This document shows positions 4,306 to 63,479 of a stretch of DNA of 64,000 nucleotides, in pieces (positions within the stretch are counted from its first letter, which is position 1; every line of letters begins with the position of its first letter). The translations under genes were made by a program, and so were the position numbers. The notes under the pieces were generated by a model, which made no database searches, was not told where the DNA came from, and saw only the letters and a list, made by a program, of their open reading frames with translations. The stretch lies in NCBI GenBank assembly GCA_038245905.1, contig JBBRRY010000019.1, positions 1 through 64,000 on the forward strand. Direction: 5' to 3'. This stretch comes from Thermoanaerobaculia bacterium. Lineage in GTDB: Bacteria; Acidobacteriota; Thermoanaerobaculia; UBA5066.

Positions 4306-6170
4306 TCGAGCGTGAACGTCTTCTTCCAGTCCTCGCTCTCGGCGAACGATGGCTGATCCTCGCGAAGGAGGACATGGTTCTCGAGGACGAGCGCGTCCAT
4401 CGCCGTCCGCATGAAGCAGCGGTAGGCGTCCTCGGGCGTGCAGACAATCGGTTCGCCCCGGACGTTGAACGACGTGTTCACGACGACCGGGCAGCCCGTC
4501 TTCTCCTGAAACGCAAAGAGGATCGCGTGGTAGACGGGGTTCGTCTCCTTCCGCACGGTCTGGAGGCGCGCCGAATAGTCGACGTGCGTGACGGCGGGGA
4601 TCGACGAGCGGGGAACATTCAGCCTTTCGATGCCCCAGAGCGCGCGCTCGGCGTCCGTCATCTCGCGCCGGAGGCTCTTTGCCACGTCCGCGCAGAGGAG
4701 CATGTAAGGCGAGTCCCCGTCGAACTCGAACCACGCTGCGGCATCCTCGCGGAGGACGGACGGCGCGAACGGCCGGAACGACTCCCGGAACTTGATCTTG
4801 AGGTTCATGACCGACTGCATCGCCGGGGAGCGCGGATCGCCGAGGATGCTCCGCCCGCCCAGCGCGCGCGGCCCGAACTCCATCCGCCCCTGCAGGAGGC
4901 CGACGACCTTGCCCGAAGCGAGAAGGTCCGCGACGGTGGCAGGAAGCTGGACGGCACTCACGGAGCGAAACGGGTAGTTTTTCGAAGAAAGCCAGGAGGA
5001 GATTTCTTCTGATGAGTAGGAGGGACCAAGGAATGCGCCCGACATGCCGTCTTCGTAAGGGGGCAGGGCACGCCGCGCGAGATTTTGCCTCCAGGTCCCT
5101 CGTCTTTCCGCGCTTTCGCGCGGCATCCCGAGGTGCCGGTGCCATACCGCGAGCGCGGCGCCGACGGCGCCGCCCGCGTCGCCCGCGGCGGGCTGGATCC
5201 AGAGATCGTCGAAGATTCGCGCTTCGTGGAGCTTTCCGTTCGCGACGCAGTTCAGCGCGACGCCGCCCGCCAGGCAGAGATATTTCGCGCCGGTCGTCTT
5301 CTTCGCGTGGCGGGCCATCTTCAGGACGATTTCCTCGGTCACGTCCTGGATCGAGCGGGCGAGATCCATCTCGCGCTGCGTGAGCTTCGATTCCGGCGCC
5401 CGCGCCGGGCCGCCGAACAGCCGCTCGAAGCCCGCGCCCGTCATCGTGAGGCGATCGGCGAAGTCGAAGTAGTCCATGTCGAGCCGGATCGAACCGTCCT
5501 CGCAGACGTGGACGAGCTTCTCCCGGATGAGATCGGCGTACTTCGGCTCGCCATAGGGAGCGAGGCCCATGAGCTTGTACTCGCCGCTGTTGACCTTGAA
5601 GCCGCAGAAGTACGTGAAGGCCGAGTACAGAAGGCCGATGGAATGGGGAAACTTGAGCTCCGAGAGCATGTCGAGCCGGTGTCCGCTGCCCATCCCGAGC
5701 GACGACGTCGCCCACTCCCCCACCCCGTCCATCGTCAGAACGGCGGCCTCCTCATAGGGCGACGGATAGAAAGCCGACGCCGCATGGGACTCGTGATGCT
5801 CGGAAAACAGCACCCCGCCCTCGTACCCCAGCTCCTTGCCGATGCGCTCGGACATCCAGAGGCGGTCCGTGATCCAGAGGGGCATCGACTTCAGGAACGA
5901 CGTGAACCCTTTCGGGGCGTACTCGAGGTACGTCTCGAAGAGGCGCTCGAATTTCAGGAGCGGCTTGTCGTAGAACGCCACGTGGTCGAGGTCCGCGGCC
6001 GCGAGGCCTCCGGCCTCGAGGCAGTAGCGCGCGGCGCGGGCGGGAAACTCCGCGTCGTGCTTCTTGCGGGTGAAGCGCTCTTCCTGCGCCGCGGCCACGA
6101 TCTTCCCGTCGACGAGGAGACACGCGGCAGAGTCGTGGTAGTAGGCCGACAGGCCGAGGATCGCCGCCAC
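4302..6170 (-). CDS. O-carbamoyltransferase, NodU/CmcH/SxtI family
   Basis: ILGLSAYYHDSAA, EHHESHAASAFY, GEYKLMGLAPYG, LAGGVALNC, GPRALGGRSI, KFRESFRPFAP, NTSFNVRGEPIV. GTG start at 6170. Confidence 0.93.
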   Translation of the reverse strand: MAAILGLSAYYHDSAACLLVDGKIVAAAQEERFTRKKHDAEFPARAARYCLEAGGLAAADLDHVAFYDKPLLKFERLFETYLEYAPKGFTSFLKSMPLWITDRLWMSERIGKELGYEGGVLFSEHHESHAASAFYPSPYEEAAVLTMDGVGEWATSSLGMGSGHRLDMLSELKFPHSIGLLYSAFTYFCGFKVNSGEYKLMGLAPYGEPKYADLIREKLVHVCEDGSIRLDMDYFDFADRLTMTGAGFERLFGGPARAPESKLTQREMDLARSIQDVTEEIVLKMARHAKKTTGAKYLCLAGGVALNCVANGKLHEARIFDDLWIQPAAGDAGGAVGAALAVWHRHLGMPRESAERRGTWRQNLARRALPPYEDGMSGAFLGPSYSSEEISSWLSSKNYPFRSVSAVQLPATVADLLASGKVVGLLQGRMEFGPRALGGRSILGDPRSPAMQSVMNLKIKFRESFRPFAPSVLREDAAAWFEFDGDSPYMLLCADVAKSLRREMTDAERALWGIERLNVPRSSIPAVTHVDYSARLQTVRKETNPVYHAILFAFQEKTGCPVVVNTSFNVRGEPIVCTPEDAYRCFMRTAMDALVLENHVLLREDQPSFAESEDWKKTFTLD

Positions 6171-6328
6171 TAGAACAGCGTGTAGATGAAGGGCGCGATC
6201 ACACTCTTCTCGGCGAGGACGAGGAGGAGCCCGACGAGGACGAGGAGAAACACGATGGGCATGAGCCAGTACTTCTTCCGGTATTTCAGGAAAGCCCAGA
6301 GCTGCGCGAGGACGTCGCCCTTGCCCAT
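6170..6328 (-). CDS. Small membrane protein, SxtK/DUF5989-like
   Basis: 52 aa MGKGDVLAQLWAFLKYRKKYWLMP...IAPFIYTLF; the APFIYTLF end and position next to a carbamoyltransferase are characteristic. Confidence 0.85.
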   Translation of the reverse strand: MGKGDVLAQLWAFLKYRKKYWLMPIVFLLVLVGLLLVLAEKSVIAPFIYTLF

Positions 6329-6717
6329 TACCAGATCGTCTCGTAGTGGCGGGGGTCGCCGTTGCGCTCGGGATACGGCGTCCACATCGATTGGGGATCG
6401 GGCCCCCGGCGCCGAAGCTCGTTGCGCCCGAAGAGGCGGAGGACGAAGCCGAGAGGCGTGAGGACAAGGAAGAACGTCAGGAACAGGAAGATCGCGGAAT
6501 TGACGCGTCCGAGGACCCGAGCGAACGCAAGCCAGGCACGGTGAGGGCCGGCGAGGAGCCCCGGCGCGGCGGCGGCGAGGAGGAGCAGGACGCCCCCGAG
6601 GAACGCGCAGACCGCCCCGGCCACGGCGCGGTGCCGCCAGAGCAGTAGAGCGCCGAGGACGGCGAACACGCCACCCACCGTCCACCCGAACTTCCGATCT
6701 TCGGACCTGGTCGCCAC
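6328..6717 (-). CDS. SxtJ-family membrane protein
   Basis: DRKFGWTVG...WLAFARVLGRVNSAIFL...LTPLG; lies directly upstream of DUF5989 and the carbamoyltransferase. Confidence 0.8.
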   Translation of the reverse strand: MATRSEDRKFGWTVGGVFAVLGALLLWRHRAVAGAVCAFLGGVLLLLAAAAPGLLAGPHRAWLAFARVLGRVNSAIFLFLTFFLVLTPLGFVLRLFGRNELRRRGPDPQSMWTPYPERNGDPRHYETIW

Positions 6718-6727
6718 CGCTCGGATC

Positions 6728-10421: not shown

Positions 10422-11860
10422 TCGATCTCCGTCGAGAGGACGCGGGCGGTCGCCCGCCCCCGGGCGAGTCGGAGGCGCACGGCGTCTCCCGTTTTCAGCG
10501 TCGAGGCGTCGGTCACCGGCGTCGTCTCCCCGTCCTTCGTCAGGATCGAATAGCCCCGCGCGAGGACGCGCAGCGGGCTCAGGGCCTCGAGTCGCCCGGC
10601 GGCGACGCCGAGCTTTTCGTGGGCGGACGCAAGCCGCGCCGCCATCCGGTCGGTAGCCGCCCGCCGCTCCTGCAGCGCGTGCTCCGCGAGGAACGGAAAC
10701 GCGGCGCGATCGGGCCAGGCGCGAATGATCTGCTCGAACGAGGAGATTCGGGAGGAAAGAGAAGATGGGATGCTGCGAAAGGAAGAAAGGAGGGCGGCCA
10801 CCGCAGCCGCCGCCGAGGCCCGCTCGCCGCGCACGCGCGAAGGGAACCCTCCGAAGGCCGGTGACGAATCCAGCCGCGAGAGCTCGATCCGCGCCGCGTT
10901 CTCTCTTCCTTTCAGAAGAAATCTCAGACTGCGGTCCGCCGTGCCGAGCCGTTCCTCGAACTGGGCGAGAGGGCCGACCACAATTTCCGCCGCCTGCGAC
11001 GGAGTGGCGGCGCGGACGTCGGCCGCGAGGTCCGTCAGTGTGACGTCCGTCTCGTGTCCGACCGCTGAGACGACGGGGACGCGCGAGGCCGCGACGGCCC
11101 GGACGACGGCCTCGTCGTTGAACGCCGCGAGGTCCTCCTTCGAGCCGCCGCCGCGCGCGACGATCAGGACGTCCGCGGAGCCCGGCACGCGGGAGAAAGC
11201 GCGAATGGCGCGAACGATCTCCCCAGGAGCCGCGGCGCCCTGGACGGAGGCGGGGTAGAGAGTCACGTGGGCGTTCGGAAACCGGGCGTCCAGCACCTTG
11301 AGAATGTCGTGCAGGGCCGCGCCGTGCCGGGAGGTCACGACTCCGATGCGTTGCGGCAGCAGCGGGAGCAGTCTCTTCTTCGCGACGTCGAACAACCCCT
11401 CTGCCTGCAGCCGGGCCTTCAGCTGCTCGAGGGCGAGCTGCAAGGCGCCGATGCCGGAGGGCTGGATTTCGATGATCCTGAGCGAAAGCTCGCCGCGCTC
11501 CGGGTAGACGTCCGGAGTGCCGCGAGCGAGGACAAGAAGACCTTCTTCGAGTGTAAAGGGAATGCGGCGGTAGTCGCTCGCGAAGACCTTCACGCGCAGG
11601 GTGGCGGCGCCCGATTCATCCTTCAAACAAAAAAAGCAGTGCCCGGACGCAGCCGGCCCCCGGAAACCCGAGACCTCGCCGCGGACCCATGCGTTCGGGA
11701 GGCCCGTGCGGAGCATTCCGTTGATCTGGGAGATGACCTCCGACACGGAGAGAGCCGTCGCATCCGGCCCCGAATCTCCGAGCGACATCTGGGTCTCGCC
11801 AACGCGGCCGGCGGCTACGCGGCGGAGCGTGTACGGGCGCGCGGGGATTCTCGACGACAT
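10418..11860 (-). CDS. xseA: Exodeoxyribonuclease VII large subunit
   Basis: WVRGEVSG...SGHCFFCLKD, ARGGGSKEDLAAFN, SAVGHETD, AATPSQAAE, LSPLRVLARGY. Confidence 0.95.
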   Translation of the reverse strand: MSSRIPARPYTLRRVAAGRVGETQMSLGDSGPDATALSVSEVISQINGMLRTGLPNAWVRGEVSGFRGPAASGHCFFCLKDESGAATLRVKVFASDYRRIPFTLEEGLLVLARGTPDVYPERGELSLRIIEIQPSGIGALQLALEQLKARLQAEGLFDVAKKRLLPLLPQRIGVVTSRHGAALHDILKVLDARFPNAHVTLYPASVQGAAAPGEIVRAIRAFSRVPGSADVLIVARGGGSKEDLAAFNDEAVVRAVAASRVPVVSAVGHETDVTLTDLAADVRAATPSQAAEIVVGPLAQFEERLGTADRSLRFLLKGRENAARIELSRLDSSPAFGGFPSRVRGERASAAAAVAALLSSFRSIPSSLSSRISSFEQIIRAWPDRAAFPFLAEHALQERRAATDRMAARLASAHEKLGVAAGRLEALSPLRVLARGYSILTKDGETTPVTDASTLKTGDAVRLRLARGRATARVLSTEIE

Positions 11861-14170: not shown

Positions 14171-14198
14171 CCGGCCCCGACCCCTCTTATCTTTCTCA

Positions 14199-14220
14199 TT
14201 ACCCTTCTAAGAAAATCTTC
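14199..14220 (+). repeat. Dispersed motif copy TTACCCTTCTAAGAAAATCTTC (rny-ymdB spacer)
   Basis: Near-identical to copies at 63458, 63377 (minus), 42073 (minus), 48505 (minus) and 31878. Confidence 0.7.
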
Positions 14221-14236
14221 TCTTTTCTCTTCTCTT

Positions 14237-15859
14237 CTATTTAGCAAAATCTACTGCTCTCGTCTCCCGGATGACGGTGATTTTGATCTGGCCGGGGTAC
14301 TGCAGCTCGGCCTCGATGCGCTTCGCGAGATCCTTCGACATCCAGAGGCATTCGTCGTCCGTGATCTTCTTCGCGTCCACGATGACGCGGAGCTCGCGGC
14401 CGGCCTGGATCGCGAACGTCCGCTCGACGCCCTTCATTCCGTCCGTCATCTTCTCGAGCTTCTCGAGGCGCTTGACGTAGGTCTCGAGGATTTCGCGGCG
14501 CGCGCCAGGGCGGGCGGCCGAGATGGCATCCGCCGCGTTCACGAGAACCGCCTCGATCGTCCGCGGCTCGTAGTCGCCGTGGTGGCACTCCATGCCGTGG
14601 ATCACCGCCTCGGTCTCGCCGTACTTCTTCAGGATCTGCCGCCCGAGCTCGAGGTGCGTGCCCTCCTGTTCCCGGTCGATCGCCTTCCCGATGTCGTGCA
14701 GAAGGCCCGCGCGCTTCGCGACCGTCACGTCCGCGCCGAGCTCGCTCGCGAGGTGGCACGCGGCCCAGCCGACTTCCTTGCTGTGCTGGAGGACGCTCTG
14801 CCCGTAGCTCGTCCGGTACTTGAGCCGTCCGAGCATCTTGACGACTTCCGGGTGCAGGTCGGCGATGCCGAACTCGAACGCGGCCGCCTCGCCCGTCGTT
14901 TTGATGTCCTGCCAGAGCTCCTCACGGACCTTCTCGACGACCTCCTCGATGCGGGCCGGGTGGATGCGCCCGTCCTGGATGAGGCGCTCGAGGGCGCGGC
15001 GCGCGACCTCGCGGCGGATCGGGTCGAACGAGGAGAGGAGGATCGCCTCGGGCGTGTCGTCGATGATGATGTCGACGCCCGTCGCGGCCTCGACGGCGCG
15101 AATGTTCCGGCCCTCGCGCCCAATGATTCGCCCCTTCATGTCGTCCGACGGCAGGTCGAGGACCGAGACGGTCGTCTCGACGACGTGCTCGGACGCCATG
15201 CGCTGAATCGTCATCGAGAGGAGGCGCTTCGCCTTCCAGTTCGCGCTCTCGACGGCGTCCTCCTCGATGCGGCGGACGAGGCCCGTCGCCTCGAGCCGCG
15301 CCTCGTTCTCGAGCTCGCGGATGAGGTCCCGCTTGGCCTGCTCGGCCGTCAGGCCCGCGATCTTCTCGAGCTTCTCGTGCTGCTCCTGAATCGCGGCTTC
15401 GGCCTTCTTCTCGGCCTCGGTTTCGATCTCCTCGAGGCGCTTCTCGCGCTTCGACAGGTTCTGGGCGCGGTTCTCGGAGTCCAGCTCGCGCTTCTCGGCG
15501 TTGACGATCTTCTTGTCGAGGGATTCTTCCTTCTGAAGAAGCCGCTTCTCCTGGTCCAGGAGCTCGGCCCTGCGTTTGACGGCCTCCTGTTCGGCAGTTT
15601 CACGAGCCTTGAGCGCCCGCTCTTTCGCGTCGAGCTCGGTCTTCTGGGCGGAGGCTTCGGCGCGGCGCACGGCGGCCTCCGCGGCGAGCTTCGCCTCCTC
15701 GAGCTTCTTGCGGGCCTCGAGCTCGGCTTCGGCCATCGCGATGGAGGCCGTTCCCCGGGTTTTCAGGGCCCAGATGAGGATGCCCACGGCGAGTGCCGCG
15801 AGCACGACCTCTAAGGCAATAATTTGAATGGAGTTCACGGGTCGGTCCCCCTCGATCAA
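14237..15859 (-). CDS. rny: Ribonuclease Y
   Basis: N-terminal TM, coiled coil, KH (MKGRIIGREGRNIR), HD (AGLLHDIGK), AIQAGRE. Confidence 0.97.
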   Translation of the reverse strand: MIEGDRPVNSIQIIALEVVLAALAVGILIWALKTRGTASIAMAEAELEARKKLEEAKLAAEAAVRRAEASAQKTELDAKERALKARETAEQEAVKRRAELLDQEKRLLQKEESLDKKIVNAEKRELDSENRAQNLSKREKRLEEIETEAEKKAEAAIQEQHEKLEKIAGLTAEQAKRDLIRELENEARLEATGLVRRIEEDAVESANWKAKRLLSMTIQRMASEHVVETTVSVLDLPSDDMKGRIIGREGRNIRAVEAATGVDIIIDDTPEAILLSSFDPIRREVARRALERLIQDGRIHPARIEEVVEKVREELWQDIKTTGEAAAFEFGIADLHPEVVKMLGRLKYRTSYGQSVLQHSKEVGWAACHLASELGADVTVAKRAGLLHDIGKAIDREQEGTHLELGRQILKKYGETEAVIHGMECHHGDYEPRTIEAVLVNAADAISAARPGARREILETYVKRLEKLEKMTDGMKGVERTFAIQAGRELRVIVDAKKITDDECLWMSKDLAKRIEAELQYPGQIKITVIRETRAVDFAK

Positions 15860-15934
15860 TCAATTTTTCGAGGGTGAGCCGGGTCGAACGCTAGACGAGC
15901 TCCCGAAAGCGTCTCTCGATGCGAGCAAAGGAAA

Positions 15935-16808: not shown

Positions 16809-18941
16809 TCAAGCTTCTTCCTTCACGCCGTCCACCTTAGCCCCGGGTAGCGCTCGGAGGCGCCGCACCGCCGCGTCCCGCCACGCGTTCACGTCGTCTC
16901 GAGCGAGCGAGCGCTGCGGCGAGCCGAAGCGGAGCGTCAGGGTCGTCTTTATGAATCCGTCCGGGACGCCGGGGCCGCGGTAGCGGCCCTTCGCCTCGAC
17001 CGCGACGAGCTCCGCGGGCGCACCGCCCCGGACCGCTCCCTCGAGCGCGCTCCACGAGGTCGCGAGCGGATGGGCCACGGTGAGATCCATCTCGCTGCCG
17101 GGAAACTTCGACGGCGGCTCGACGGACGTCTCGACAGGCGGCAGCGCGGCCGCGAGAACGCCGAGGTCGAGGTCGGCGACAACGGAATCGGTCAGGTCCC
17201 AGGAAGCGGCGAGGGCCGGCTCGAGGACGCCGACCCAGCCGGCAGGGACTCCCCCGACCTCGATCGACGCGGCGCGCCCGGGAGCAAGGAAGGAGAAGAG
17301 AAGACTTTCTTTGAAGGTGAAGAGGGCCGGAGGCTCACCCAAGCCAAGTCCTCTCATCAGAGCCGCGGCAATTCCCGCCCCTTCGAAGAAATCCGAATTC
17401 GCCGCCTCCGCCTGCGACCAGTGGCGGCTTCTGGCGCCAGCGAGGAGGATACCGACTCTTGCTCTCTCGGAGACTCTCCCATCCCCTCTTGTCTTCTCCT
17501 CAGCAGAAATCTTCTCCGGATTCCAGCCGAAGGCCGTTCCGACCTCGAAGAGCGCGAGGTCGCTCTGGCCGCGCCGCACGTTGTGCTGCGCGCTCTGGAG
17601 AAGCCCGATGACGGGCGTCGCGCGCATCGTCGTGAACGGCTCTCCGAGAGCGTTCTCGACGACGACCGGCGCCCCGGGGGCGGCGGACTCGAACGGGAGA
17701 TTCTCCGAGGCCGCCACGAACGAGTAGGTCTGGCATTCGAAGAGCCCGAGCCCGGCGAGGAGATCGCGCGCGCGATCGGGGACGAGAGCCGACGGCCGGG
17801 GACGCGCCGGGGCGTAGGGACGCGGCAGCGTCTCGGGCAACCGGTCGTACCCCTCGCAGCGGATGACTTCCTCGATGAGGTCTTCCTCGCAGGTGATGTC
17901 GACGCGCCACGATGGGACCGTCACGCGGACTCGATCGCCCTCGCGGGCCGGAGAGAAGCCGAGCGCGGCGAGGATCTCGAGGACGCGCGCCGCGGGAATG
18001 TCCAATCCGAGGAACGCCGTGAGGCGGGAGAGGCGAAGCTTCTGCGTGGGCGCTGCGGGCTCGTTCGCGCGGGCGTCGATCGTTCCCTTGCAGAGCGTGC
18101 CCCCCGAGTCCCCGAGGATGAGGCGCGCGGCCCGGTCGAGCCCGTCGCGCGTCGCCTCGAGGTCCGCCCCTCGTTCGAAGCGGTGAGAGGCGTCCGTATG
18201 CATCCCCAGGGAGCGCGCTGTCTTACGGACGGCGCCCGGGTGAAAGTGCGCGCTCTCGAGGAGGATGCGCGTCGTCTTCTCCGAGATCGCCGTCGCGAGT
18301 CCCCCCATGACGCCCGCGAGCGCGACGGGCCTCTCGGCGTCCGCAATCACGAGGTGCTGCGGCGTGAGCTTCCGCAGGGCGCCATCGAGCGTCACGAGCG
18401 TCTCCCCCGCCCTCGCCCGCCGTACGACGATCGTCGGGAGGCCGTCGTCCCCGTTCGCGAGCGTGTCGAGGTCGAAGGCGTGAAGCGGCTGCCCGATGTC
18501 CCAGAGCACGTGGTTCGTGGCGTCCACCGGCGCCGAGATCGCTCCCGAGCCCAGCGCGGCCAGGCGTTCGCGCACGGCGGCCGAAGCGGGTCCTACGCGG
18601 ATCCCCTCGATCACCCGCGCGGAGTATCGCGCGCAGAGAGTTGGCTCCTCGACGAAGACACGCGCCCGCGCATCAGCAGGCGTCGCTCCTTCATGCAGCG
18701 GCGGGGCAGCCGGCTCGGCGAACGCGCGGCCGAGCGCGACGGCCGCTTCGCGCGCGAGGCCCCTGTGATTCATGGCGTCCGGACGGTTCGCCGTGATCTC
18801 GACGTCGTAGACCGTCGACGCGCCCTCGCCCTCGACTCCCTCCACGATGAAACCGACGGCCGTCAGACGCTCACCGAGCGCCTTCGGGTCCGGCGGCGGG
18901 CCCGGAAGGTACGAGGCGATCCAGGCATACGAGAACTTCAC
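16809..18941 (-). CDS. pheT: Phenylalanine-tRNA ligase beta subunit (short form)
   Basis: GTG 18941 (MKFSYAWI); VEITANRPD, GQPLHAFD, LAGVMGG, TDASHRFERG, VPSWRVDI...DLIEEV. Confidence 0.95.
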   Translation of the reverse strand: MKFSYAWIASYLPGPPPDPKALGERLTAVGFIVEGVEGEGASTVYDVEITANRPDAMNHRGLAREAAVALGRAFAEPAAPPLHEGATPADARARVFVEEPTLCARYSARVIEGIRVGPASAAVRERLAALGSGAISAPVDATNHVLWDIGQPLHAFDLDTLANGDDGLPTIVVRRARAGETLVTLDGALRKLTPQHLVIADAERPVALAGVMGGLATAISEKTTRILLESAHFHPGAVRKTARSLGMHTDASHRFERGADLEATRDGLDRAARLILGDSGGTLCKGTIDARANEPAAPTQKLRLSRLTAFLGLDIPAARVLEILAALGFSPAREGDRVRVTVPSWRVDITCEEDLIEEVIRCEGYDRLPETLPRPYAPARPRPSALVPDRARDLLAGLGLFECQTYSFVAASENLPFESAAPGAPVVVENALGEPFTTMRATPVIGLLQSAQHNVRRGQSDLALFEVGTAFGWNPEKISAEEKTRGDGRVSERARVGILLAGARSRHWSQAEAANSDFFEGAGIAAALMRGLGLGEPPALFTFKESLLFSFLAPGRAASIEVGGVPAGWVGVLEPALAASWDLTDSVVADLDLGVLAAALPPVETSVEPPSKFPGSEMDLTVAHPLATSWSALEGAVRGGAPAELVAVEAKGRYRGPGVPDGFIKTTLTLRFGSPQRSLARDDVNAWRDAAVRRLRALPGAKVDGVKEEA

Positions 18942-18942: not shown

Positions 18943-20043
18943 TCAGCTCCACACGCGATCGAGGAAGCGGACGTCGTTCTCGAAGAAGAGGCGCAGATCG
19001 GGGACACCGTAGAGGAGGAACGCGATGCGGTCGATTCCCATCCCGAACGCGAAGCCGGAGTATTTCGCGGGGTCGATCCCTCCGTTTCGGAGGACGTTCG
19101 GGTGGACCATTCCGGCACCCATGATCTCGATCCAGCCCGAGCCCGAACAGGGCCGGCACGTGGCCCCGTTCGCGGTGCCGGTGCCCGAGCAAAAAACGCA
19201 CGACACGGCCACGTCCACTCCCGGCTCGACGAACGGGAAGAACGTCGGCCCGAAGCGTATCCGCGTCTCGGGCGTGAAGAGCAGGCGCGAGAATGCCGCG
19301 AGCGTGCCCTTGAGGTCGGCGAACGTGACGCCCTCGTCCACGGTCAGACCTTCCATCTGGTGGAACACCGGCGAGTGGCGCGGGTCGATGTCGTCCTTGC
19401 GGAAGACGCGGCCGGGGATGACGATTCGGATCGGAGGCTTCTTTGCGAGCATCGTCCGGATCTGCACCGGAGACGTGTGCGTCCGGAGCAGGAGCCGGTC
19501 CTTCCCTTCCCCGCCGTCTTTCACGAAGAACGTGTCCACAGCATCACGCGCCGGATGGTCCGGCGGAAAATTGAGGGCCTCGAAGTTGAGCCAGTCCGAC
19601 TCGACCTCGGGCCCTTCGGCGACCTCGTACCCAAGCGACGCGAAGGCGCTCTCGATGCGGCGCCGCACGACCGTCAGCGGGTGCAGCCGGCCCACGCGCG
19701 GAGCGCGCGGCGGAAGGGTGACGTCGACGGCCAGGGCCCTTTGCTTCAGGGATCGTTCGAAGAGAAGAGACTTTTCTTCGAGTGAAGAGAGGGCCACCTC
19801 TGCCTCGCGCTTCAGTGCGTTCACCGCGGCGCCGGCCGCGGCCTTCTCGTCCTTCGGAAGATCCTTGAGGAGCTTCAGAAGATCCGTGACCATCCCCTGC
19901 TTCTGGCCCAGCCAGCGCACGTGGAGCGCGCGCACATCCGCCGGGAGGAGGCCCATCGGTGACGAAGCCTTCTCCTCGGCAGTCTTAAGCTCCTCGAAGA
20001 AAACTCTTCGTTTCTCTTCGACGGAGGCGAGCAGGTCAGCCAC
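18943..20043 (-). CDS. pheS: Phenylalanine-tRNA ligase alpha subunit
   Basis: HPARDAVDTF, LRTHTSPVQIR, HSPVFHQMEG, FPFVEPG, GFAFGMGIDR. Confidence 0.97.
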   Translation of the reverse strand: MADLLASVEEKRRVFFEELKTAEEKASSPMGLLPADVRALHVRWLGQKQGMVTDLLKLLKDLPKDEKAAAGAAVNALKREAEVALSSLEEKSLLFERSLKQRALAVDVTLPPRAPRVGRLHPLTVVRRRIESAFASLGYEVAEGPEVESDWLNFEALNFPPDHPARDAVDTFFVKDGGEGKDRLLLRTHTSPVQIRTMLAKKPPIRIVIPGRVFRKDDIDPRHSPVFHQMEGLTVDEGVTFADLKGTLAAFSRLLFTPETRIRFGPTFFPFVEPGVDVAVSCVFCSGTGTANGATCRPCSGSGWIEIMGAGMVHPNVLRNGGIDPAKYSGFAFGMGIDRIAFLLYGVPDLRLFFENDVRFLDRVWS

Positions 20044-23250: not shown

Positions 23251-23321
23251 GCCTTACCCTCTTCCCTTCTCAGAAATCTTCCTCTCTCCCGCGAGAAGAA
23301 CAACGACGTCAGGTCGAGGGA

Positions 23322-23397: not shown

Positions 23398-23437
23398 TCG
23401 AGTAGCCGTACGGCGGCGGCACGGGAGAGACCGCGGA

Positions 23438-41109: not shown

Positions 41110-42084
41110 ATGAAGCTCGTCATTCAGATCCCCGCCTGGGACGAGGCGGAACAGATCGGACCCGCACTCGCGGAGCTGCCTCGCCGCGTGCCCGGGTTCG
41201 AGTCGGTCGAGACGCTCGTCGTGGACGACGGCTCGACCGACGACACCGCGGAGGCCGCGCGCCGGGCGGGAGCGGGCCACGTCGTCCGGCTTCCCATCCA
41301 CCGTGGACTCGCGTTCGCCTGGCGGGCCGGGCTCGACGCCGCGTTGCGTCTCGGGGCCGACGTCATCGTCTCGACCGATGCCGACCGCCAGTACGCGGCG
41401 GCCGACATCGAGGTGCTCGTCGCGCCGATCCTGAAGGGCAAGGCCGAGATCGTCGTCGGCGACCGCGGCGTCGCGACGAAGGACGACTTCTCCCCCGGCA
41501 AGCGCCTCACACAGCGTCTGGGGTCATGGGTCGTGCGGCGCGTCTCCGGCACCGACGTGCCCGACGCGACGTCCGGCTTCCGCGCCCTCACGCGCGAAGC
41601 CGCGATGCAGCTCAACGTCTTTTCGAAGATGACGTATACGATCGAGACGCTCATCCAGGCCGGCAACAAGGAGATGGCGGTCGCCTCGGTCCCCGTACGG
41701 ACGAACCCGCCCGTCAGGCCGTCGCGCCTCATCCGGCGCACGTCGAACTACGTCCTCGTCCAGGGCGCGAACATCCTGCGGATCACCGCGCTCTACAAGC
41801 CGTTGCCCGTGTTCTTCGGCGCCGCGGCCCTCCTCGCGTTCGCCGGCCTCGCGCTCGTCGCGCGGTACGTCTGGTTCGTCGCGATGGCTCAGAACCCCGC
41901 GGGCCACCTCCAGTCGCTCCTCCTCGCCGCCGTCCTCTTTGTCGCGGCGGTCGTCTGCTTCCTCTCCGGCCTCCTCGCGGACCTCATCTCGATCAACCGC
42001 GCTCTCCTCGAGGAGCTCGTCGTCGAGAAGAGGAGAGATGCTGCTTCGGAGAAAGACAGAGACCCGGGGATTCGGATTTCTTAG
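41110..42084 (+). CDS. Glycosyltransferase family 2 (DPM1-like, C-terminal TM helices)
   Basis: IPAWDEA, VVDDGSTDDT, TDADRQY, DATSGFRA. Confidence 0.9.
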   Translation: MKLVIQIPAWDEAEQIGPALAELPRRVPGFESVETLVVDDGSTDDTAEAARRAGAGHVVRLPIHRGLAFAWRAGLDAALRLGADVIVSTDADRQYAAADIEVLVAPILKGKAEIVVGDRGVATKDDFSPGKRLTQRLGSWVVRRVSGTDVPDATSGFRALTREAAMQLNVFSKMTYTIETLIQAGNKEMAVASVPVRTNPPVRPSRLIRRTSNYVLVQGANILRITALYKPLPVFFGAAALLAFAGLALVARYVWFVAMAQNPAGHLQSLLLAAVLFVAAVVCFLSGLLADLISINRALLEELVVEKRRDAASEKDRDPGIRIS

Positions 42085-42087
42085 AAG

Positions 42088-43050
42088 GTGAGTGAAAGGC
42101 GTAAGAAAATCTTCTCGCTGGCCTGTGTTGCGGCCCTCGTCGTGCTCTTCGGCCTCGCATTCCGACACTCTTCAGCAGAAATCTCTTCCCGTCTCTCCTC
42201 CTCGAACCCTCTTCTCATTGCGCTCGGCTTCCTCCTCAATCTGCTCGCGTTCGTGCCGCGTGCGGTGCGCCTGAATCTCCTGCTGCCGCCGGGCGAAAGC
42301 GTTCCGTTTGGGCGCGCGTGGTCGGTCTCGGGCGCGACGACGTTCCTCCTGCAGGTGATGCCTTTCCGGAGCGGCGAGATCGCCTCATGGGCTTCGATCC
42401 GCGCCGTCCTCGGCGCTACGTGGGCCCGGTCGGGCGCGGTCTTCGCGCTCTCGAAGCTCCTCGACACGGCGACGCTCCTCCTGACGGGCGTCGCCGGCGC
42501 CGCCTGGCTCCTCCTCGCGCGCGGGACGGCCGTCCTCGGGGCGGCCACCGCTGCCGCGTGCGTCGCCGGGGCCGCCGCACTCGTCTTCCTTCCCACGGTG
42601 TCCGGACACCTCGTCGAGCGCCTCGCGCCCCGCCTGCCCGAGGGCAGCCGTCCCCTCGCTTTCGCGGACGAGCTCGCCCTCGGCCTCGCGGTCGCGCGGC
42701 GCGCCCCGGCGCGGTACGCGGGCGCCGCGCTCGCGGCGTTCGCGTTCCTCGGGTTCCACCTCGCGGCGCTCTGGGTCACGGCGAAGGGCCTCGGCCTGCC
42801 GCTCCATCCGGCCGTGCTCTCGGTAGCGCTCCTCGCGTCCATCACGACGGCGGCCGTCGTCCCGTCGCCCGCCGGAACCTTCGGGCCGTACGAATCGGGT
42901 TTCGCCGCCGCGGCCGCGGTGGGAGGCGGACTCCCCCTCGTAGCCGGGGCCGTCCTCGGCGGCCTTCTCCACCTCTTGACGACGCTCGCCGCAGGTGCGG
43001 CGGGCCTGCCGTTCCTGCTTGGACGGTTGAGAGAGAATCCGCGCCCATGA
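42088..43050 (+). CDS. Lysylphosphatidylglycerol-synthase TM / flippase-like membrane protein (UPF0104)
   Basis: Multi-TM; MPFRSGE, PSPAGTFGPYE; adjacent to the GT2. Confidence 0.8.
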   Translation: MSERRKKIFSLACVAALVVLFGLAFRHSSAEISSRLSSSNPLLIALGFLLNLLAFVPRAVRLNLLLPPGESVPFGRAWSVSGATTFLLQVMPFRSGEIASWASIRAVLGATWARSGAVFALSKLLDTATLLLTGVAGAAWLLLARGTAVLGAATAAACVAGAAALVFLPTVSGHLVERLAPRLPEGSRPLAFADELALGLAVARRAPARYAGAALAAFAFLGFHLAALWVTAKGLGLPLHPAVLSVALLASITTAAVVPSPAGTFGPYESGFAAAAAVGGGLPLVAGAVLGGLLHLLTTLAAGAAGLPFLLGRLRENPRP

Positions 43051-45029
43051 AGGCATCGATGACCCACGCGGCAATCGTGCTGCTCTTTGCCGCGGCCTTT
43101 CCCGCGCATTCGCAGAAATCTCCTTCTTCTCCGAAGCAAAAGATTTCCTCTTTCGGCGCCCTCGAGGCGGACTACGTCCGGGCGTTCCTGAACCGGTTCC
43201 CGGTCGTCGCGACGTACCTCGGCGCCGAGGGGCTGGACTCCACGTACGCGGTGCTGGACGGCAAGCTGCGCGACTACTCTCCCGCGGCGCTCCTCGCCGA
43301 GCGCGACGAGTGGCGCGGGTTCGAGGCTCGGCTCGCGAAGGTCGACGAGAAGAGGCTGTCCGAGGCCGACCGCATCGACGCGGCCGTCCTCAAGGCACAG
43401 CTCGCATTCCTCGTCCACAATTTCGACCGGCGCGTGCACGAAAAGGCCCTCGACGTCTTCCTCGAGGAGCCGCTCCGGGGAATCGAATTCACGCTTCAGG
43501 GAATGACGCCCGGCGCGGAAGGGGTCCGCGGTACGGCCGCCGAGTGGCGCGGTGTCGCGTTGCGCGCGGCCGCGGTGCCCGCATACCTGAGGACGGCGCT
43601 CGCGAACGTGCGGCGCGGTGCGTCCGGCAACGCGATCCCGGACCGGCGGCTCATTGTGAGCGCTGTCGACGCGGCCGAGTCGACGGCCGTGTACTTCGAG
43701 AAGAGTCTTTCCGAAACGGCCGCCGCCTGGGGCGCCGGCGCCGACACGAGGTCGGCGCTCTCGGTGGGCTGCCCGGCCGCGGCCGCCGCGTTCCGGGAAT
43801 TTCGCAAAGGCCTCATGGATCTCTTCTTCGAGGCGGGAGGGAAGACTCTCAAGCCGGCTTTCGACAGGGATCGCTTCGCGGCGGGCGAGACGGAGTATTC
43901 GTGGGCGCTCCGGAACAACCTGCGGGTCTCCGCGACCCCGCGCGAGCTCCACACGCGAGGCAAAGCGGCGGTCGTCTCGACGCTGACGCAGATGACGGCG
44001 CTCGCGGGCCGGAGCGCTCTCACGCGGGGCTGGTCCGACACGTCGCTCGCCGGCGTCGTCACGAAGCTCGAGGAGGAGATTCCGAAGACGGACGCCGAAA
44101 TGCTCGCGTCGTACCAGCAGGCGTGCCAACGGCTCGTCGCCTACGGCAGGAAGACGGGAATGTTCGATCTCCCGGCCGGCTACAAGCTCGACGTGATCTT
44201 CACGCCGCCGCCGCTCCGCAACACGATCGACGCGGCGTACTATCCCGCGCCGCAGTTCAAGTCCGGCGGCGTCGGGCAGTTCTACGTGACGCCCACCGGC
44301 GACGATCCCTCCCTCCTTCGGGACCACGCGCGCGCGGCGGTCGCGTCCCTCGCGGCGCACGAGGGATTCCCCGGCCACGACTGGTACTACCAGTTCACCC
44401 GCGCGCACGCGGCGTCCATCCCGGCGACCCGCTGGCTGCTCCCCGGCGGCATCGAGGACTCCGCCTCGATGTGGGAGGACGCGCTCTCGTCCGAGGGCTG
44501 GGCGCTCTACTGCGAGCAGCTCGTCGGCGAGGCGCGCGAGGGCGCACCCGAAGGCTTCTACACGCCCGAGGAGCGGCTCTTCCAGCTCCAGAACCAGCTC
44601 CTCCGGGACGCACGTGTCGTCGTGGACACGGGCCTCCACTGCGGTTACATGTCCTGGGACGACGCCGTCACGTACCTCGCGCGCAACGTGCGCTTCGTGC
44701 GCGGGCCCGTCTCGACCGATCCGAAGGTGAACCCGAGCGCGGCGGAGAGAGCGGCCGTCGACGGAATGCAGAAGGCCGCGTTCCGCTATTCGAAGTGGCC
44801 CACGCAGGCGATCACGTACTTCCTCGGAAAGGCCGAGATCCTCGCACTTCGTGAGGAATGCCGCCGGATCGAAGGTGCCGGCTTCTCCGAGCGGCGCTTC
44901 CACGAGGAGTTCCTCCTGGAAGGGCAGATCCCGCCCGGCATGTTCCGCGGCCGGCTCCTCGCGAAGGCACGGGCCCGCGCGGAAACAACGGGGGCACCGG
45001 ACGCGGCAAGCGTCGGGATCTCGAGGTGA
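43047..45029 (+). CDS. DUF885 family exported protein (putative metallopeptidase)
   Basis: Start ATG 43047 (ATGA overlap); AHEGFPGH, EGWALYCE, RVVVDTGLH, PTQAITYFLG. Confidence 0.88.
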   Translation: MKASMTHAAIVLLFAAAFPAHSQKSPSSPKQKISSFGALEADYVRAFLNRFPVVATYLGAEGLDSTYAVLDGKLRDYSPAALLAERDEWRGFEARLAKVDEKRLSEADRIDAAVLKAQLAFLVHNFDRRVHEKALDVFLEEPLRGIEFTLQGMTPGAEGVRGTAAEWRGVALRAAAVPAYLRTALANVRRGASGNAIPDRRLIVSAVDAAESTAVYFEKSLSETAAAWGAGADTRSALSVGCPAAAAAFREFRKGLMDLFFEAGGKTLKPAFDRDRFAAGETEYSWALRNNLRVSATPRELHTRGKAAVVSTLTQMTALAGRSALTRGWSDTSLAGVVTKLEEEIPKTDAEMLASYQQACQRLVAYGRKTGMFDLPAGYKLDVIFTPPPLRNTIDAAYYPAPQFKSGGVGQFYVTPTGDDPSLLRDHARAAVASLAAHEGFPGHDWYYQFTRAHAASIPATRWLLPGGIEDSASMWEDALSSEGWALYCEQLVGEAREGAPEGFYTPEERLFQLQNQLLRDARVVVDTGLHCGYMSWDDAVTYLARNVRFVRGPVSTDPKVNPSAAERAAVDGMQKAAFRYSKWPTQAITYFLGKAEILALREECRRIEGAGFSERRFHEEFLLEGQIPPGMFRGRLLAKARARAETTGAPDAASVGISR

Positions 45030-48000: not shown

Positions 48001-51000
48001 GCGAAGCCGCCGCGGTCCTCCTCGCCGACGGGCCGTTCGATCACCGTCGCGTCGCTTCCGGCCTTGAGGATGCGCCGCTCGATCAGCTTCCCGGCGCGGG
48101 CGACGTCCAGGTAGAGCGTCTGACCCTTGAGACCCGAGGCGACGTAGAAGCGGGCGACGCCGCCGGCCTTCACCGACGAGGACTCGGCGAGGAGGACGAG
48201 CGGCAGCGCCGGCGACGCCTTCGCGCCCGCGGCGAGGAAGTCCTGCTCCGTCTCGTACTTCGCGCCGAAGTCGTCGACCGTCGTGTACCGCAGGCGGTAC
48301 GCGCCCGGCGAAAGGGCGGGCAGGTCGAGTCTCGCTTCCCCCTTCGCGCCATGTGTCAGGGCTCCGGTCGCCTCCTCGGCGCCGTCCTTCCACGCGTGCA
48401 GCCACTCCTCGACGGAGTAGCCCGTCGCCCAGCGCGGACGCAGCCGGTCGCCGGGGGTGGTCAGATCCAGAGTGGCTTGCTTCTCGCTGTCCGAAGCGCC
48501 GGATGAAGATTTCTTTGAAGGTAATTCGGCAGGGAGGAGAGTCTTCTCCGGCTGGACGAGCCGCAGCAACCGCCAGGTCCCCTTGCCGGCCCGAGGCGCA
48601 CCGTCCAGGTCGGAGCGCACGATGGTCGCCTCGCCCGTCTTACCCTCCAAGAAGAAATTCTTCTCTTTCTCAATCCTTGCCTTCACGCTCACGAACCCGA
48701 GGCGGAAGGAGCGGTCGGCCGAGCGCGTCTCGCCACCCTCGTCCGTCACGTCGACCGAGAGCCGGTACCGGTATGTGATCTCCCGGCCCGCGCGCTCGTC
48801 CGCCTTCGGCGTGAACGTCACCGCGAACGCGCCGTCCGCTCCGAGCGCCGTACGGCCCGTCGCGACTGTCTCATTCGCCGCGGGACGCGCGCCGCCCCAC
48901 CAGCCCCACCACCACCACGAGGGATACTCGGGCTCGCGCGTCACGCGCCAGGCGACGCCTCCGCCCGCGACGGGCAGGCCGAAGTAATAGCGCGCCTCGC
49001 CCCGGAACGTCGCGGGCCGGTTCAGGCGCAGCGCATCCTTCGACTCCGCGAGCGTCGCTTCGAACGTCGGGCGCTTGTACTCCTCGACCCGGATTGCGGC
49101 CGCGCCGCTCCAGCTGCTCTGCACGCGCCAGGCGCCAAGCGCGCGGCCGGCCGGAATCGCGAACTCTCCCGCCACCGAGCCCCATGCGTTCGTCGTGACG
49201 GTCTTCGACTCGACGGGCTGGCCGTTCGCGTCGATGAGAGAGATCGAGAGGGTCGACTCGGGCGCGACGCGCAGGCGGGCGAGGTCCGCGCGCCCGCGGT
49301 AGACGACGGCCTTCCAGAGGACCTTCTGGAGGGGCCGGTAGATGCTACGGTCCGTGAAGACGAGGGCGGACGTGGTGTCCGAGGGCGTGGCCCGGCTCCA
49401 GAGCGAGAGATAGCTCGCGTCCAGCGCCACGTCGTCGCCGCGCCGCGCGAAGAGGAACGTCTGCTTCCCGTTGCGGTCGGTCGCGGGCTCGATGGCCGCG
49501 AGGCCGTCCGGCCCGGCCGTCGACTCAACGATGCGGTGATGCCCGTTCTGCCAGTCGTACTGCCAGAGGGCCACCTTCGTTCCGGCCGCGGGGCGGCCCG
49601 TGGTTCCCGAGACGGCACGCGCCTCGACGCCGCCCATGTCCGTCTGGCGGATCGTGAGCACGAGATCCGTTTCGATCATCCCGGCGGCGTGAAGGGGTCC
49701 CTTCTCCGGCGAAAATCCCCTGTCGGCCGAGGCGACGACAACGTGAAGTCCGCGCCCGAGGGAGGGCGGCGTCACGAACGTGCGGTGGGACCGGTAGTCG
49801 GTCGTCGCGGGAAGCGCGGACTCGAACGAGGCGACGGGTGTCTCCTTCGCGACGAGCGCGTCGAGCTCGCGCCCCTGCGGCAGGAGGTTGTAGTCCTTCG
49901 CCCGGCCGAGACGGGCCTCGAGGTCCACCGCGTAGGCCCGGAAGTAGAGCGTCGGGAGGTTGCGGTGCGTGACCTCGATCGAGCGGCGGCCCGCGCCGTC
50001 CGCGGCCATCGCGGCCATCGACCAGTCCGGCGCCTCGATCTGCCCCACGATCGAGCGCCCGCGCGCGGCGCCGAGCGACTTCGGGTGGGCCTGGATCGCC
50101 TCGAGGGCGAGCGTCCGGGCGCGCACGAGGGCGCCCGGCTTGTCCTCGCCCCTCGTGAAGTCCGCGAGCTGGGCCTTGCCCATCGAGTACCACGAGACGT
50201 CAGCGTACGAAGGCAGCCTCCCCGCGAGGTCCCTGCGAATCGCGGCCTTGTCGCCCGAGTCGGTGAAGGCGGCGTCGAGATGGCGCAGCCTCTCGAGGCG
50301 CGCTTCCAGCGCGGCCTCCCGTTCGCCCCCCGCCGCGTGCCACGCCTCGAGGTCGTCGAGGACCGCGCCGAGCTTCAGGAGCGGGTGGACGGCCGGATCG
50401 CCGAGCTTCACGAGCTTCGACGCCGCGGCGTCGCCCGCGATGAGGGACTTCGCGTCCAGCGCGAAGACGCCGTTCGACTGCTCGGGCCGCCAGCCGGACG
50501 TGTCCGCGAGGAGCGCCGCGAAGAGGTACGACGCGGCGTCGCGCAGCGTCCCGCGGATCTCCTTCGGATAGTTGTTGGGCTCGACGAACTCGGCGACGGC
50601 GTCGACCTTGACGCGCCCGAGCGCTTCGCGGTCCTTCCAGACCTCGACGTACGCCCTCACCGCCTCGGCCTGGATCTCGTCCCGCGTCCACGCCTTGAGG
50701 TCCACGGCGTTCTTCGAGGCGACCTTCTCGCGCTGAAAGACCTCCCCCGAGTAGGCCTGCGCATACGTCACGAGCGACTGCGCATAGAAGAGACGCAGGG
50801 TGGTGCGTGGCAGCAGGCCCTTCGGCCAGGGCTGGTCCTTCAGGAACCGGACCGACGTCTCGTAGCCGTGGAGCGCGGTCCGGAGCTGGACTTCGCGGAC
50901 GAGCGCCTTCGCCTCGTTCGCCTCGTCGCCCGCGGCGCGCGCAGCGCCCCGGATCTTTCCGACCCTCGAGGCCGCCTCTTCGAGCTTCTGCTCGGAGACG

Positions 51001-62229: not shown

Positions 62230-62829
62230 TCAACCCTTCTTCTTTTTCTTCCACGGTCTCGCCTTCGATTGCGCTGCGGCGGGCGCGTCCGCGTCCGCCG
62301 GGCGGATGAGAATCCACCAGAGGAGAAAAGGTGCCGCATAGCAGCCCACGACTCGCCAGAAGTGCGTGGCGGTCACCCAGAGGTTCCGGCTGAGCGCGCC
62401 GTAGTGCGCCGCGCTCCACGCGCCGAGGCGCGTCGCATAGAGGGCTTCGACGTTCGCGACGACCGCGAGAACGTGAAGCACGAAGAGCACGAGAAGGCTC
62501 ACGGCGACGCCCTTGACCGCGCGGTCGCGCAGCAGGCCCCGTGTCGTGGCCGCGAGCGACAGGAACAGGATCACGTCGAACGTCAGGTCGTCGACGGGCA
62601 GGGACGGCCGGTCCGACGTGGACGGAAAGTCCGCGCGGTCGATCACGAGGCGCCGGTCCTCCGCGTAGAGCCGCGTCGCGTGCGGCCGCTCGAACACGCG
62701 AATCGCCCCCTCCGCCATGCCCGCGAGAAGCCGGTTGTAGGCGGGCGTCGCCGACCACCAGAGCGCGAGGCCCGCCAGAAAACCGAGAAGGAGCCTAGCC
62801 CCGAGCTTCAACCGGGTCTCCGCCGGCAC
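62230..62829 (-). CDS. Exosortase H-associated membrane protein
   Basis: Multi-TM protein overlapping the 3' end of the exosortase; APFLLWW near the C-terminus. Confidence 0.6.
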   Translation of the reverse strand: MPAETRLKLGARLLLGFLAGLALWWSATPAYNRLLAGMAEGAIRVFERPHATRLYAEDRRLVIDRADFPSTSDRPSLPVDDLTFDVILFLSLAATTRGLLRDRAVKGVAVSLLVLFVLHVLAVVANVEALYATRLGAWSAAHYGALSRNLWVTATHFWRVVGCYAAPFLLWWILIRPADADAPAAAQSKARPWKKKKKG

Positions 62830-63313
62830 CGCCCCCCGCCGTCCACCGGCTCCAGGCGAGGAAGATCCCGACGGCCAGTAGGATGAGGGCCGTCTGCCAG
62901 ACTGCCGCGTGGAACAGCTCGAACACGTTTCGGTGGTGCACGCCGAGCCAGAAAAGCGACACGATGCGGAACAGATTCACGCCCTGGATCACGGCGAGCC
63001 CGCCCGCGATTCCGAGCGCGCGCTGGTTTCCCGTCGCGGGAAACGCGAGCATCGCGGCCACGAGGAGAAGCGCGGCCTCGATTCCGTTGCAGCCGTTCTT
63101 CACGTCCACCGCGAACACGGGCGATTGAATGAGCGTGCCGACGGACTGGGTCTTCTCGCCGATCGCCGCGAGGATCACGGTCGAGACGCGCACGAGAAGC
63201 TCGGTGAAAGGCACGACGACGTGGTCGTTCACGGGCTGGATCGCGACGAGCAGGTAGAAAACGCCCAGCGCGAACACGAACCGGACGAGAAACTTCTTCT
63301 GCGCGGGCTGCAT
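62795..63313 (-). CDS. xrtH: Exosortase H / archaeosortase-family transpeptidase
   Basis: VDVKNGCNG (catalytic Cys), NLFRIVSL (Arg), FHAAVWQ (His). Confidence 0.85.
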   Translation of the reverse strand: MQPAQKKFLVRFVFALGVFYLLVAIQPVNDHVVVPFTELLVRVSTVILAAIGEKTQSVGTLIQSPVFAVDVKNGCNGIEAALLLVAAMLAFPATGNQRALGIAGGLAVIQGVNLFRIVSLFWLGVHHRNVFELFHAAVWQTALILLAVGIFLAWSRWTAGGGAGGDPVEARG

Positions 63314-63376
63314 GAGGGAGGAGGATAAGAGATTTTGCTTCGGAGCGCGCCTCGGGCGCGCCCGGGAGAGGGAACC

Positions 63377-63479
63377 GGGGATTTTCTTAGAAGGGGGAAT
63401 GCACGCTCGCAGAAATGAAGAGGCCCGGCAGTCGCCGGGCCTCGCTCTTTCTTGCTCTTACCTTCTAAGAAATCTCTTC
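63377..63479. repeat. Inverted pair of the dispersed motif flanking the terminator
   Basis: GATTTTCTTAGAAGG (63380-63394) and CCTTCTAAGAAATC (63461-63474). Confidence 0.7.
63420..63443 (-). terminator. Intrinsic terminator
   Basis: Perfect 10 bp stem GAGGCCCGGC-AGTC-GCCGGGCCTC; minus strand continues TTCATTTC, downstream of the 63483 gene. Confidence 0.75.

Follow-up and report, generated by a model that had tools for sequence, protein, structure and literature searches.

A conserved AT-rich word in outward-pointing inverted pairs, written into genes and spacers of GC-rich Thermoanaerobaculia genomes

A group of GC-rich sediment and soil bacteria within the class Thermoanaerobaculia (Acidobacteriota) carries hundreds of copies of an AT-rich word, mostly in outward-pointing pairs. 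The word is strongly over-represented, is written into genes by point substitution, is conserved between relatives, and erodes in a sister genus. Here, we describe these copies, which we call arms, starting from a stretch of 64,000 nucleotides (the window; positions 1 to 64,000 of contig JBBRRY010000019.1, GenBank assembly GCA_038245905.1, C19:1-64000 in our numbering). The genome to which the window belongs (G000) comprises 3.80 Mb in 113 contigs with 67.8% GC. A preliminary description of the window, made from its letters without database searches, had noticed the recurring patches and proposed that selection acts on the DNA rather than on the protein. It is very probable that the word is a signal at the level of the DNA, conserved and paired in a fixed geometry, which has been written into genes by substitution and depends on something lineage-specific. 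No description of the motif was found, at the level of abstracts, in the literature on the class Thermoanaerobaculia, on acidobacterial uptake sequences, or on repetitive extragenic palindromic (REP) doublets forming hairpins (REPINs) and their REP-associated tyrosine transposases (RAYTs).

Arms were located with a fixed 12-mer template, CCTTCNAAGAAA, and scored by mismatch classes. The nulls for the counts were dinucleotide shuffles of the window, an order-4 Markov chain, the genome reversed but not complemented, and codon-shuffled genomes. In the window, CCTTCNNNGAAA has 10 matches, while 100 dinucleotide shuffles gave a mean of 0.59 and a maximum of 3. The template itself finds seven exact arms and two with one mismatch there. 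Genome-wide, the 12-mer CCTTCTAAGAAA is present in 76 copies against 0.1 expected from the Markov chain, a 760-fold excess, and its two orientations are balanced in G000 (38 and 38). On the same basis, CCTTCAAAGAAA was observed 44 times against 0.25 expected, and a CGAA-centred 10-mer stayed near expectation (56 versus 39.9). The template gave 146 exact, 273 one-mismatch, and 819 two-mismatch sites in the genome, as compared with 2, 41, and 565 in the reversed genome. Matches with two mismatches are thus mostly noise. Refinement with position weight matrices was dropped because the iterations drifted to generic CT-rich patches and the reversed-genome null remained high.

The word extends beyond the template. 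An alignment of 226 copies of CTTCNAAGAA gave an asymmetric consensus that reads approximately CCCTCTTCA-CCTTC[T/A/G]AAGAAA-ATCTTCTCTTC in the pyrimidine orientation, and G is depleted in these copies for about 15 nt before the core and 27 nt after it. Anchoring on the right half, AAGAAATCTTC (46 copies), recovered the left half, with the CCTTC positions each at 65-96% consensus; the word is therefore one unit. All nine copies that had been ranked as strong in the preliminary description were found where, and on the strand on which, it had placed them. Of the sites that it listed as weaker, those at 4995-, 10905+, 17496+, 42099+, 42168+, and 43110+ consist of the right half plus the tail only.

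Most arms are located inside genes. A crude codon log-odds model called 3199 genes covering 93% of the genome, and 301-305 of the 419 arms with at most one mismatch lie within them, although arm density is 5.3-fold higher in spacers (4.5 per 10 kb) than in genes (0.85 per 10 kb). In 15 codon-shuffled replicates, which preserved every protein and the codon usage of each gene, exact genic arms numbered 3.4 +/- 1.1 with a maximum of 6, against 101 observed (30-fold). With one mismatch allowed, 305 genic arms were observed versus 55.2 +/- 6.0 (maximum 66). Inside genes, the 10-mer splits evenly by sense (82 and 82) and all frames are used. T is the commonest central base in spacer arms (62/114). 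In the two frames where a central T would be read as TAA or TAG, it occurs in 1/71 and 0/52 arms, with A or G instead, and it is kept in the tolerant frames; the replacement is thus limited to positions where a stop codon would arise. This frame-specific avoidance indicates that the arms are really translated. The density of arms in G000 also falls with codon adaptation, from 1.93 per 10 kb in the worst-adapted decile of genes to 0.35 in the best quartile. This 5.5-fold drop suggests that arms are costly to translate or are avoided where expression is high.

The arrangement of the arms follows a fixed geometry. Of the neighbour pairs whose arms have at most one mismatch and lie within 600 bp of each other, 87 are in minus-then-plus order (-+), as opposed to 12 in +-, 14 in ++, and 17 in --. 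A -+ partner with up to two mismatches at 30-300 bp accompanies 102 of the 146 exact arms; 4 have a partner in the opposite geometry and 40 have none. When pairs are counted with looser partners, 182 are -+ and 20 are +-. The orientation bias is gone above 300 bp (6 versus 7). On the top strand, a pair begins with a purine tail, TTTCTTAGAAGG, and GGTGAAGAGGG and, after the interior, closes with CCCTCTTCACC, CCTTCTAAGAAA, and a pyrimidine tail. The tails therefore point outward and the inner flanks lie face to face, which we refer to as the tail-out inverted geometry. Measured from start to start, most pairs are spaced by 65-175 bp; the mode lies at 75-95 bp, the minimum is 33 bp, and a thin tail reaches about 290 bp. 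Both arms fall in a single gene in 128 of the 182 pairs, and 32 pairs are entirely in spacers. Their interiors have no sequence in common, an ordinary GC content of 0.70, and a folding energy of -0.38 kcal/nt, equal to that of random segments. No arm-to-arm covariation at variable positions was detected across the 182 pairs, and the centre base is the same in 70 of them versus 61.9 expected. The spacing showed no periodicity at 2.5-15 bp and its mod-3 classes are 71/59/52; weak peaks near 25 and 46 bp are borderline, with R reaching 0.175 at most and the 1% threshold, uncorrected for the many periods, at about 0.159. Units occur once per about 9-12 kb. The arms have no polarity towards transcription or replication: those without a partner divide into 48 pyrimidine and 45 purine by gene sense, and arm orientation is weakly associated with local GC skew.

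The word is restricted to a narrow lineage. The 12-mer is present in 45-210 copies in all 18 sampled genomes of the window's genus and in none of 12 genomes from two other families of the order. In a class-wide sample of 201 genomes, the genus members (10/10) carry 45-138 copies, the sister-genus genome G174 carries 16, and the others carry at most 4. The corresponding range of the 10-mer in the window's genus is 56-248 copies. These tallies include three genomes flagged as unpublished (G019, G024, and G200), and no claim depends on these alone. A 270-kb sample of G021, from another family, contained no enriched AT-rich word and few AT-rich patches.

Within the genus, orthologous sites keep their arms. 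The strong arms of the window are retained across five syntenic relatives, including spacer arms with diverged flanks, and chance matches are not. The third-codon identity is 82.4% (112/136) in arm cores versus 65.2% (11075/16978) elsewhere in the same genes, and in spacers the identity is 93.5% in cores versus 83.1% in flanks. Together with the codon-shuffled null and the pair orientation, this conservation at synonymous sites supports the earlier proposal that the DNA, and not the protein, is under selection. In pheT, 27 genus genomes have both arms in the orthologous position, at a DNA identity of 75-84%; in-frame indels, the largest of about 45 nt, make the outer CT/GA tails differ. Arms are also frequent in DNA that cannot be aligned to the window, which contains 9 of the 18 arms of G038 and 7 of the 20 arms of G011 and is at least as arm-rich. 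Depletion in foreign DNA is therefore not supported, and neither does it agree with the highest density being found in poorly codon-adapted genes. Contrary to this, the extra segment of about 15 kb in the window itself holds one weak arm only.

In the sister genus, the same word is present at lower density than in the window's genus and is eroding. G174 and its congener G082 are 79.9% identical over a 294-kb alignment and have 25 and 8 arms, respectively, in 400 kb. When 19 aligned G174 arms were followed into G082, 2 kept at most one mismatch, 14 had two to five mismatches, and 3 had small indels. The two genomes differ at these sites by point substitutions, which have left recognisable relics such as CCTTCCAGGAAG. 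The 10-mer counts of eight sister-genus genomes are graded (31, 15, 13, 12, 8, 4, 1, and 1). Since the word occurs in both genera, with relics, it is older than the window's genus. The word has been held or expanded in the window's genus and is decaying in parts of the sister genus. This pattern is as expected if a trans-acting reader, or a drive, had been lost or had weakened.

A different repeat with a related core was seen in another family of the class. In G185, the 10-mer CTTCTAAGAA is abundant (132 copies versus 11 in the control) and belongs to a repeat of the form CGG-CTTCTAAGAA-ACTCCCWGTATTTAYGCGG, approximately, followed by REP-like hairpin units (GTCATCCCGAGC...GCGAGGGATC). It was found at contig ends of G185 (loci L099-L114) and also in G062, G165, and G118 (L115-L118). 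Because it often lies 130-165 nt from contig ends, this repeat breaks assemblies. The 11-mer core that it has in common with the arms may reflect a common binding protein or coincidence.

The arms of the window illustrate these properties. The minus-then-plus pairing that had been noted at 17.3k, 19.8-20.0k, 48.5-48.6k, and 63.4k holds at all four places; at 42.1k, where a fifth pair had been proposed, there is one full arm accompanied by half copies. The first pair lies in pheT. Its minus-strand arm with the polypyrimidine tail (17282..17327, core 17306-17317) encodes ALFTFKESLLFSFL and has 0-2 mismatches in 5/5 relatives. The partner on the plus strand (17380..17391), 74 bp away, overlaps the conserved DFFEGAG codons. 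A third, weaker copy (17490..17525, plus strand), composed of the right half plus the tail, lies in a variable purine-rich insertion region, and the relative L014 has a near-canonical arm at this position. The purine-rich region before the GILLAG block (17400-17560 and its orthologues) is GA-rich, of low complexity, and varies by up to about 25 codons across the genus. The tails of the arms seem, from these alignments, prone to slippage-like expansion inside an essential gene. The second pair lies in pheS and consists of a left arm at 19773..19784 (minus strand, two mismatches; 1-3 mismatches in 5/5 relatives) and a right arm at 19991..20002 (plus strand, two mismatches; 1-2 in 5/5 relatives), 218 bp apart. 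The third pair lies in an alpha-2-macroglobulin gene with the Pfam families A2M, bMG10, and MG2. Its left arm (48510..48521, minus strand) has an exact core, with 0, 0, 2, and 0 mismatches in four aligned relatives, while the right arm (48643..48654, plus strand), at 133 bp, has two mismatches in G000 and 0-1 in three relatives. The fourth pair is intergenic, between a 566-aa gene and an exosortase-like gene. The core of its left arm (63383..63394, minus strand) is exact and has at most one mismatch in 2/2 aligned relatives, and its right arm (63461..63472, plus strand), 78 bp from the partner, is exact in G000 and in both relatives even though the flanks have diverged. The interior of this pair contains a GC-rich terminator-like hairpin.

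Several arms of the window are single. One with a long CT tail (14183..14240, core 14203-14214, plus strand) occupies the spacer between rny (RNase Y) and ymdB; its core is exact and has at most one mismatch in 4/5 relatives. A 6S RNA is encoded downstream of rny at 15934-16113 on the minus strand (Rfam RF00013, 61.5 bits). Another arm (23265..23276, plus strand) is directly upstream of thrS, and its inner flank GGGAAGAGGGTAAGGC, on the strand of the gene, abuts the ATG. Close by, two tRNA-Val genes (23322-23512) adjoin extra DNA of 2.7-19 kb in G038, G011, G003, and G004, as expected for a tRNA integration hot spot. The arm in xseA (11620..11631, plus strand; Pfam Exonuc_VII_L) has one mismatch in the window and 0-1 in 5/5 relatives. 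The full arm at 42077..42088 (minus strand) lies where a GT2 glycosyltransferase gene meets an LPG-synthase-like gene and provides the TGA of the upstream gene. The LPG-synthase-like gene is bracketed by this arm and a weak one with two mismatches (43107..43118, plus strand); in G011 and G003, some other DNA of about 3 kb stands in place of the gene. The bracketing may be a coincidence, since the orientation bias is absent above 300 bp genome-wide. The remaining copies are a half copy at 4995..5015 (minus strand, right half plus tail; at most one mismatch in one relative only) and a weak arm with two mismatches at 31881..31892 (plus strand) in a gene for a 2519-aa protein. Pfam supports pheT, pheS, xseA, alpha-2-macroglobulin, thrS, rny, and ymdB as host genes. 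The first four had been named as hosts beforehand, along with a TPR protein for the 2519-aa product, which matched no Pfam family at E<=1e-6. This gene is part of the extra segment (25611-41080), which is absent from the syntenic region of 5/5 relatives.

The maintenance of these copies, mostly in pairs and often inside essential genes, implies that a factor reads the DNA itself. The reading that we favour, without granting it an even chance, is that of an architectural or loading-type site: double-stranded DNA recognised by a protein and working as a two-fold pair. Each arm would be an asymmetric binding site on duplex DNA, in which the 9-bp dyad TTCTAAGAA would suit a dimer; the arm would owe its polarity to the C-rich flank on the inner side (CCCTCTTCA) and to a polypyrimidine tail of loose length on the outer side. 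The working unit would be two inverted tail-out arms around 20-280 bp of ordinary DNA. Such a unit would show the same face to anything arriving from either side; as a 'bookmark' of the architectural or loading type, it could be bound cooperatively or act both ways. A trans-acting reader specific to the lineage would protect about 300 of these units in each genome from GC-biased decay, and essential genes would bear the price in rare codons. We infer a sequence-specific protein that binds the pair as a unit from the independent match of each arm to the consensus, the dyad within asymmetric flanks, the fixed tail-out orientation, and the lack of polarity, all of which would fit such a reader on duplex DNA. 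As to its action, loose cooperative binding or two opposite actions (loading, entry, or blockage) are favoured because the spacing is flexible and unphased; a rigid wrap of the pair is not favoured.

Genome-wide cis sites that are read by a trans factor are well known, such as parS and Noc-binding sites (NBS), FtsK-orienting polar sequences (KOPS), Chi, and the inverted Ter pair bound by the replication terminator protein (RTP) in B. subtilis. The arms resemble Ter/RTP in that asymmetric sites of about 30 bp form inverted pairs acting both ways. They differ from all of these in copy number, random placement, absence of a replication-direction bias, and sequence. A new class of cis-element is possible, though we hold it for less likely than the favoured reading as such: at asymmetric sites of about 35 bp in tail-out pairs, a DNA machine specific to the lineage would enter, load, or stop in both directions. 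The machine may be a translocase, a chromatin-like binder, or a complex for recombination or repair.

Several observations weigh against a duplex-binding architectural or loading protein. The 10-11 bp spacing phase predicted by rigid looping or wrapping is absent among the 182 pairs, a sample of modest power. Units are placed randomly along contigs, with exponential percentiles and a coefficient of variation of the gaps of 1.07; this placement gives no sign of regular domains and is just as compatible with passive accumulation. The purine/pyrimidine asymmetry of the tail between strands could indicate that single-stranded DNA is recognised instead of duplex. No reader gene was found, and the densest arm clusters lie in housekeeping genes (such as dnaJ-prmA-rsmE, hemC-hemD, and alr). 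Segments specific to G174 gave no lead among the genes common with G000. By analogy, an uptake signal would show every genomic property described here except the pairing and the low density.

This last possibility is the main rival, and we regard it as a serious one of clearly lower probability than the favoured reading. Uptake signal sequences (USS) of Pasteurellaceae and DNA uptake sequences (DUS) of Neisseriaceae have a lineage-specific core of 9-12 bp with looser flanks, and are present in hundreds of copies in both orientations, enriched in spacers yet mostly genic. They are stable at orthologous sites and are written by substitution rather than by insertion. A single copy suffices, and their density is about one per kb. 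As a 'self-DNA' signal of this type, the word would mark the fragments preferred by the competence machinery, and biased uptake with subsequent recombination would gradually write it into the core genome by substitution and keep it there. The arms agree in being an over-represented, lineage-specific word found in equal orientations, without strand bias and randomly placed, in all reading frames with stop-avoiding variants as well as in spacers, and in being kept at orthologous sites where point substitution writes or erases them. Competence genes are also at hand: ComEC is encoded in 27/29 genus genomes, and DprA and two secretins in G000. The pairing and the tenfold lower density are about all that uptake would leave unexplained. 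The obligate tail-out pairing with 20-280 bp between arms, by which 102/146 exact arms have a partner in fixed geometry, has no known counterpart in USS/DUS, and with units about 9 kb apart the arms are some 10 times sparser. Moreover, their tail is a strand-asymmetric polypyrimidine stretch and not simply AT-rich. ComEC and the secretins are equally present in relatives that lack the motif, and therefore do not track it. ComP_DUS was found in 0/5 genomes, which says little because no control genome matched either. The arm-rich DNA of G038 and G011 that is unalignable to the window is a further point against uptake.

Recognition of the arms as ends by a transposase or recombinase, either in a population like REPINs or miniature inverted-repeat transposable elements (MITEs) or as sites of a domesticated transposase, is improbable. 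Inverted arms with fixed polarity and flexible spacing do resemble terminal inverted repeats, and the CT/GA tails vary by indels between orthologues. Two reports describe REPINs as two inverted REPs around a spacer, which persist vertically for long periods in hundreds per genome (PMC3337134, 10.1101/2022.05.22.493013). The arms share with REPINs and bacterial interspersed mosaic elements (BIMEs) this inverted doublet of a repeated motif in a preferred arrangement, with a variable spacer and a few hundred units. However, the cognate single-copy RAYT is missing, as the Y1_Tnp family has no member in G000 and is found in only 4 of 29 genus genomes, being absent from the other 25. The arms are also not extragenic hairpins: most pairs are intragenic, their arms do not covary, and the pheT pair folds with a z of only -0.22. 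The interiors are unrelated native sequence with ordinary folding. In pheT, the arms encode DFFEGAG and FTFKESLLFSFLAPGR, and both of these, with the interior between them, align with the PheT of other families of the order; the alignment is broken only by an insert of 8 residues at the third, weaker copy and, close to the right arm, by gaps of 3 residues and 1 residue. The arms of G174 and G082 likewise differ mostly by substitutions without indels. Assembled contigs from four public DNA runs had no joint at any arm, although contigs drop rare variants and so cannot show rare forms.

Rickettsia palindromic elements (RPEs) and elements of the Correia or MITE type are insertions with a conserved interior, and include short repeats with inverted ends that are translated inside essential genes. 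The arms are similar in being short repeats with inverted ends translated within such genes, but here only the arms are common to the copies, they replace existing codons, and the interiors are unrelated. The decayed ends of a miniature element, which had been among the initial candidates, are accordingly the least supported of these, since the arms were written by substitution and the interiors are native gene sequence. In summary of these comparisons, the motif is most like USS/DUS in its genome placement and most like REPIN/BIME in its doublet architecture, and it fails a defining test of each, as well as the insertion test of RPEs and MITEs.

A function at the RNA level is more doubtful still. 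Each transcript across a pair carries a purine-rich arm ahead of its pyrimidine-rich complement. In this explanation, the two would form a long-range hairpin that acts as an attenuator, offers a site to RNase III, or traps the ribosome-binding site (RBS), or an arm would be bound by an RNA-binding protein. The intergenic pair at 63.4k does fold in this manner, as the segment 63365-63490 pairs the arms around the terminator hairpin with a z of -3.6. The purine-sense inner flank is RBS-like and lies 0-43 nt before the called start in 13 of the 36 spacer arms that face a gene start, and arms are rarer in the best codon-adapted genes. Against this, compensatory change between arms is absent, the pheT pair folds no better than shuffles, and the unpaired arms have no sense bias. 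A hairpin alone also cannot explain the sevenfold excess of -+ over +-. No Rfam 15 family matched at any arm at the gathering score, and in the window the database recovered only the two tRNAs and the 6S RNA. Finally, chance or composition, by which F-x-E/K codon runs and low-complexity CT patches would only look alike, can point to the barely enriched CGAA-centred variant, the noise among two-mismatch sites, and the drift of tail-including weight matrices, but is practically negligible in view of the excesses over the codon-shuffled and Markov nulls, the orientation bias, and the orthologous conservation that includes spacers, and is already refuted for the strong copies.

Other candidates for the reader were sought and set aside. 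Packaging (pac) sites of an HK97-type gene-transfer agent are excluded, as the HK97 capsid family was found in none of 46 genomes of the family. RVT_1 was not found in the motif-bearing genomes G000 and G174, and the 19-mer ACCTTCTAAGAAAATCTTC had 0 matches in viral contigs. A promoter role was rejected: by eye, many of 49 tRNA upstream regions carry an ordinary TTGAC-N17-TAnnnT, while few arms lie near tRNAs, and their distances vary.

If a dedicated reader exists, it would be a new piece of chromosome biology in Acidobacteriota of the class Thermoanaerobaculia. The word amounts to a cis-code that constrains codon choice in tRNA synthetases and other essential genes. Its patches break the signals of third-position GC content (GC3) and codon usage within genes and add low-complexity inserts to conserved proteins, and may thereby confuse gene callers and repeat finders in such genomes. 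If the arms do represent a new class of cis-element, selection would overwrite synonymous sites in essential genes for its sake, and the site would erode once the machine is lost. Because the word erodes by degrees in the sister genus, the question of which factor reads it is directly testable.

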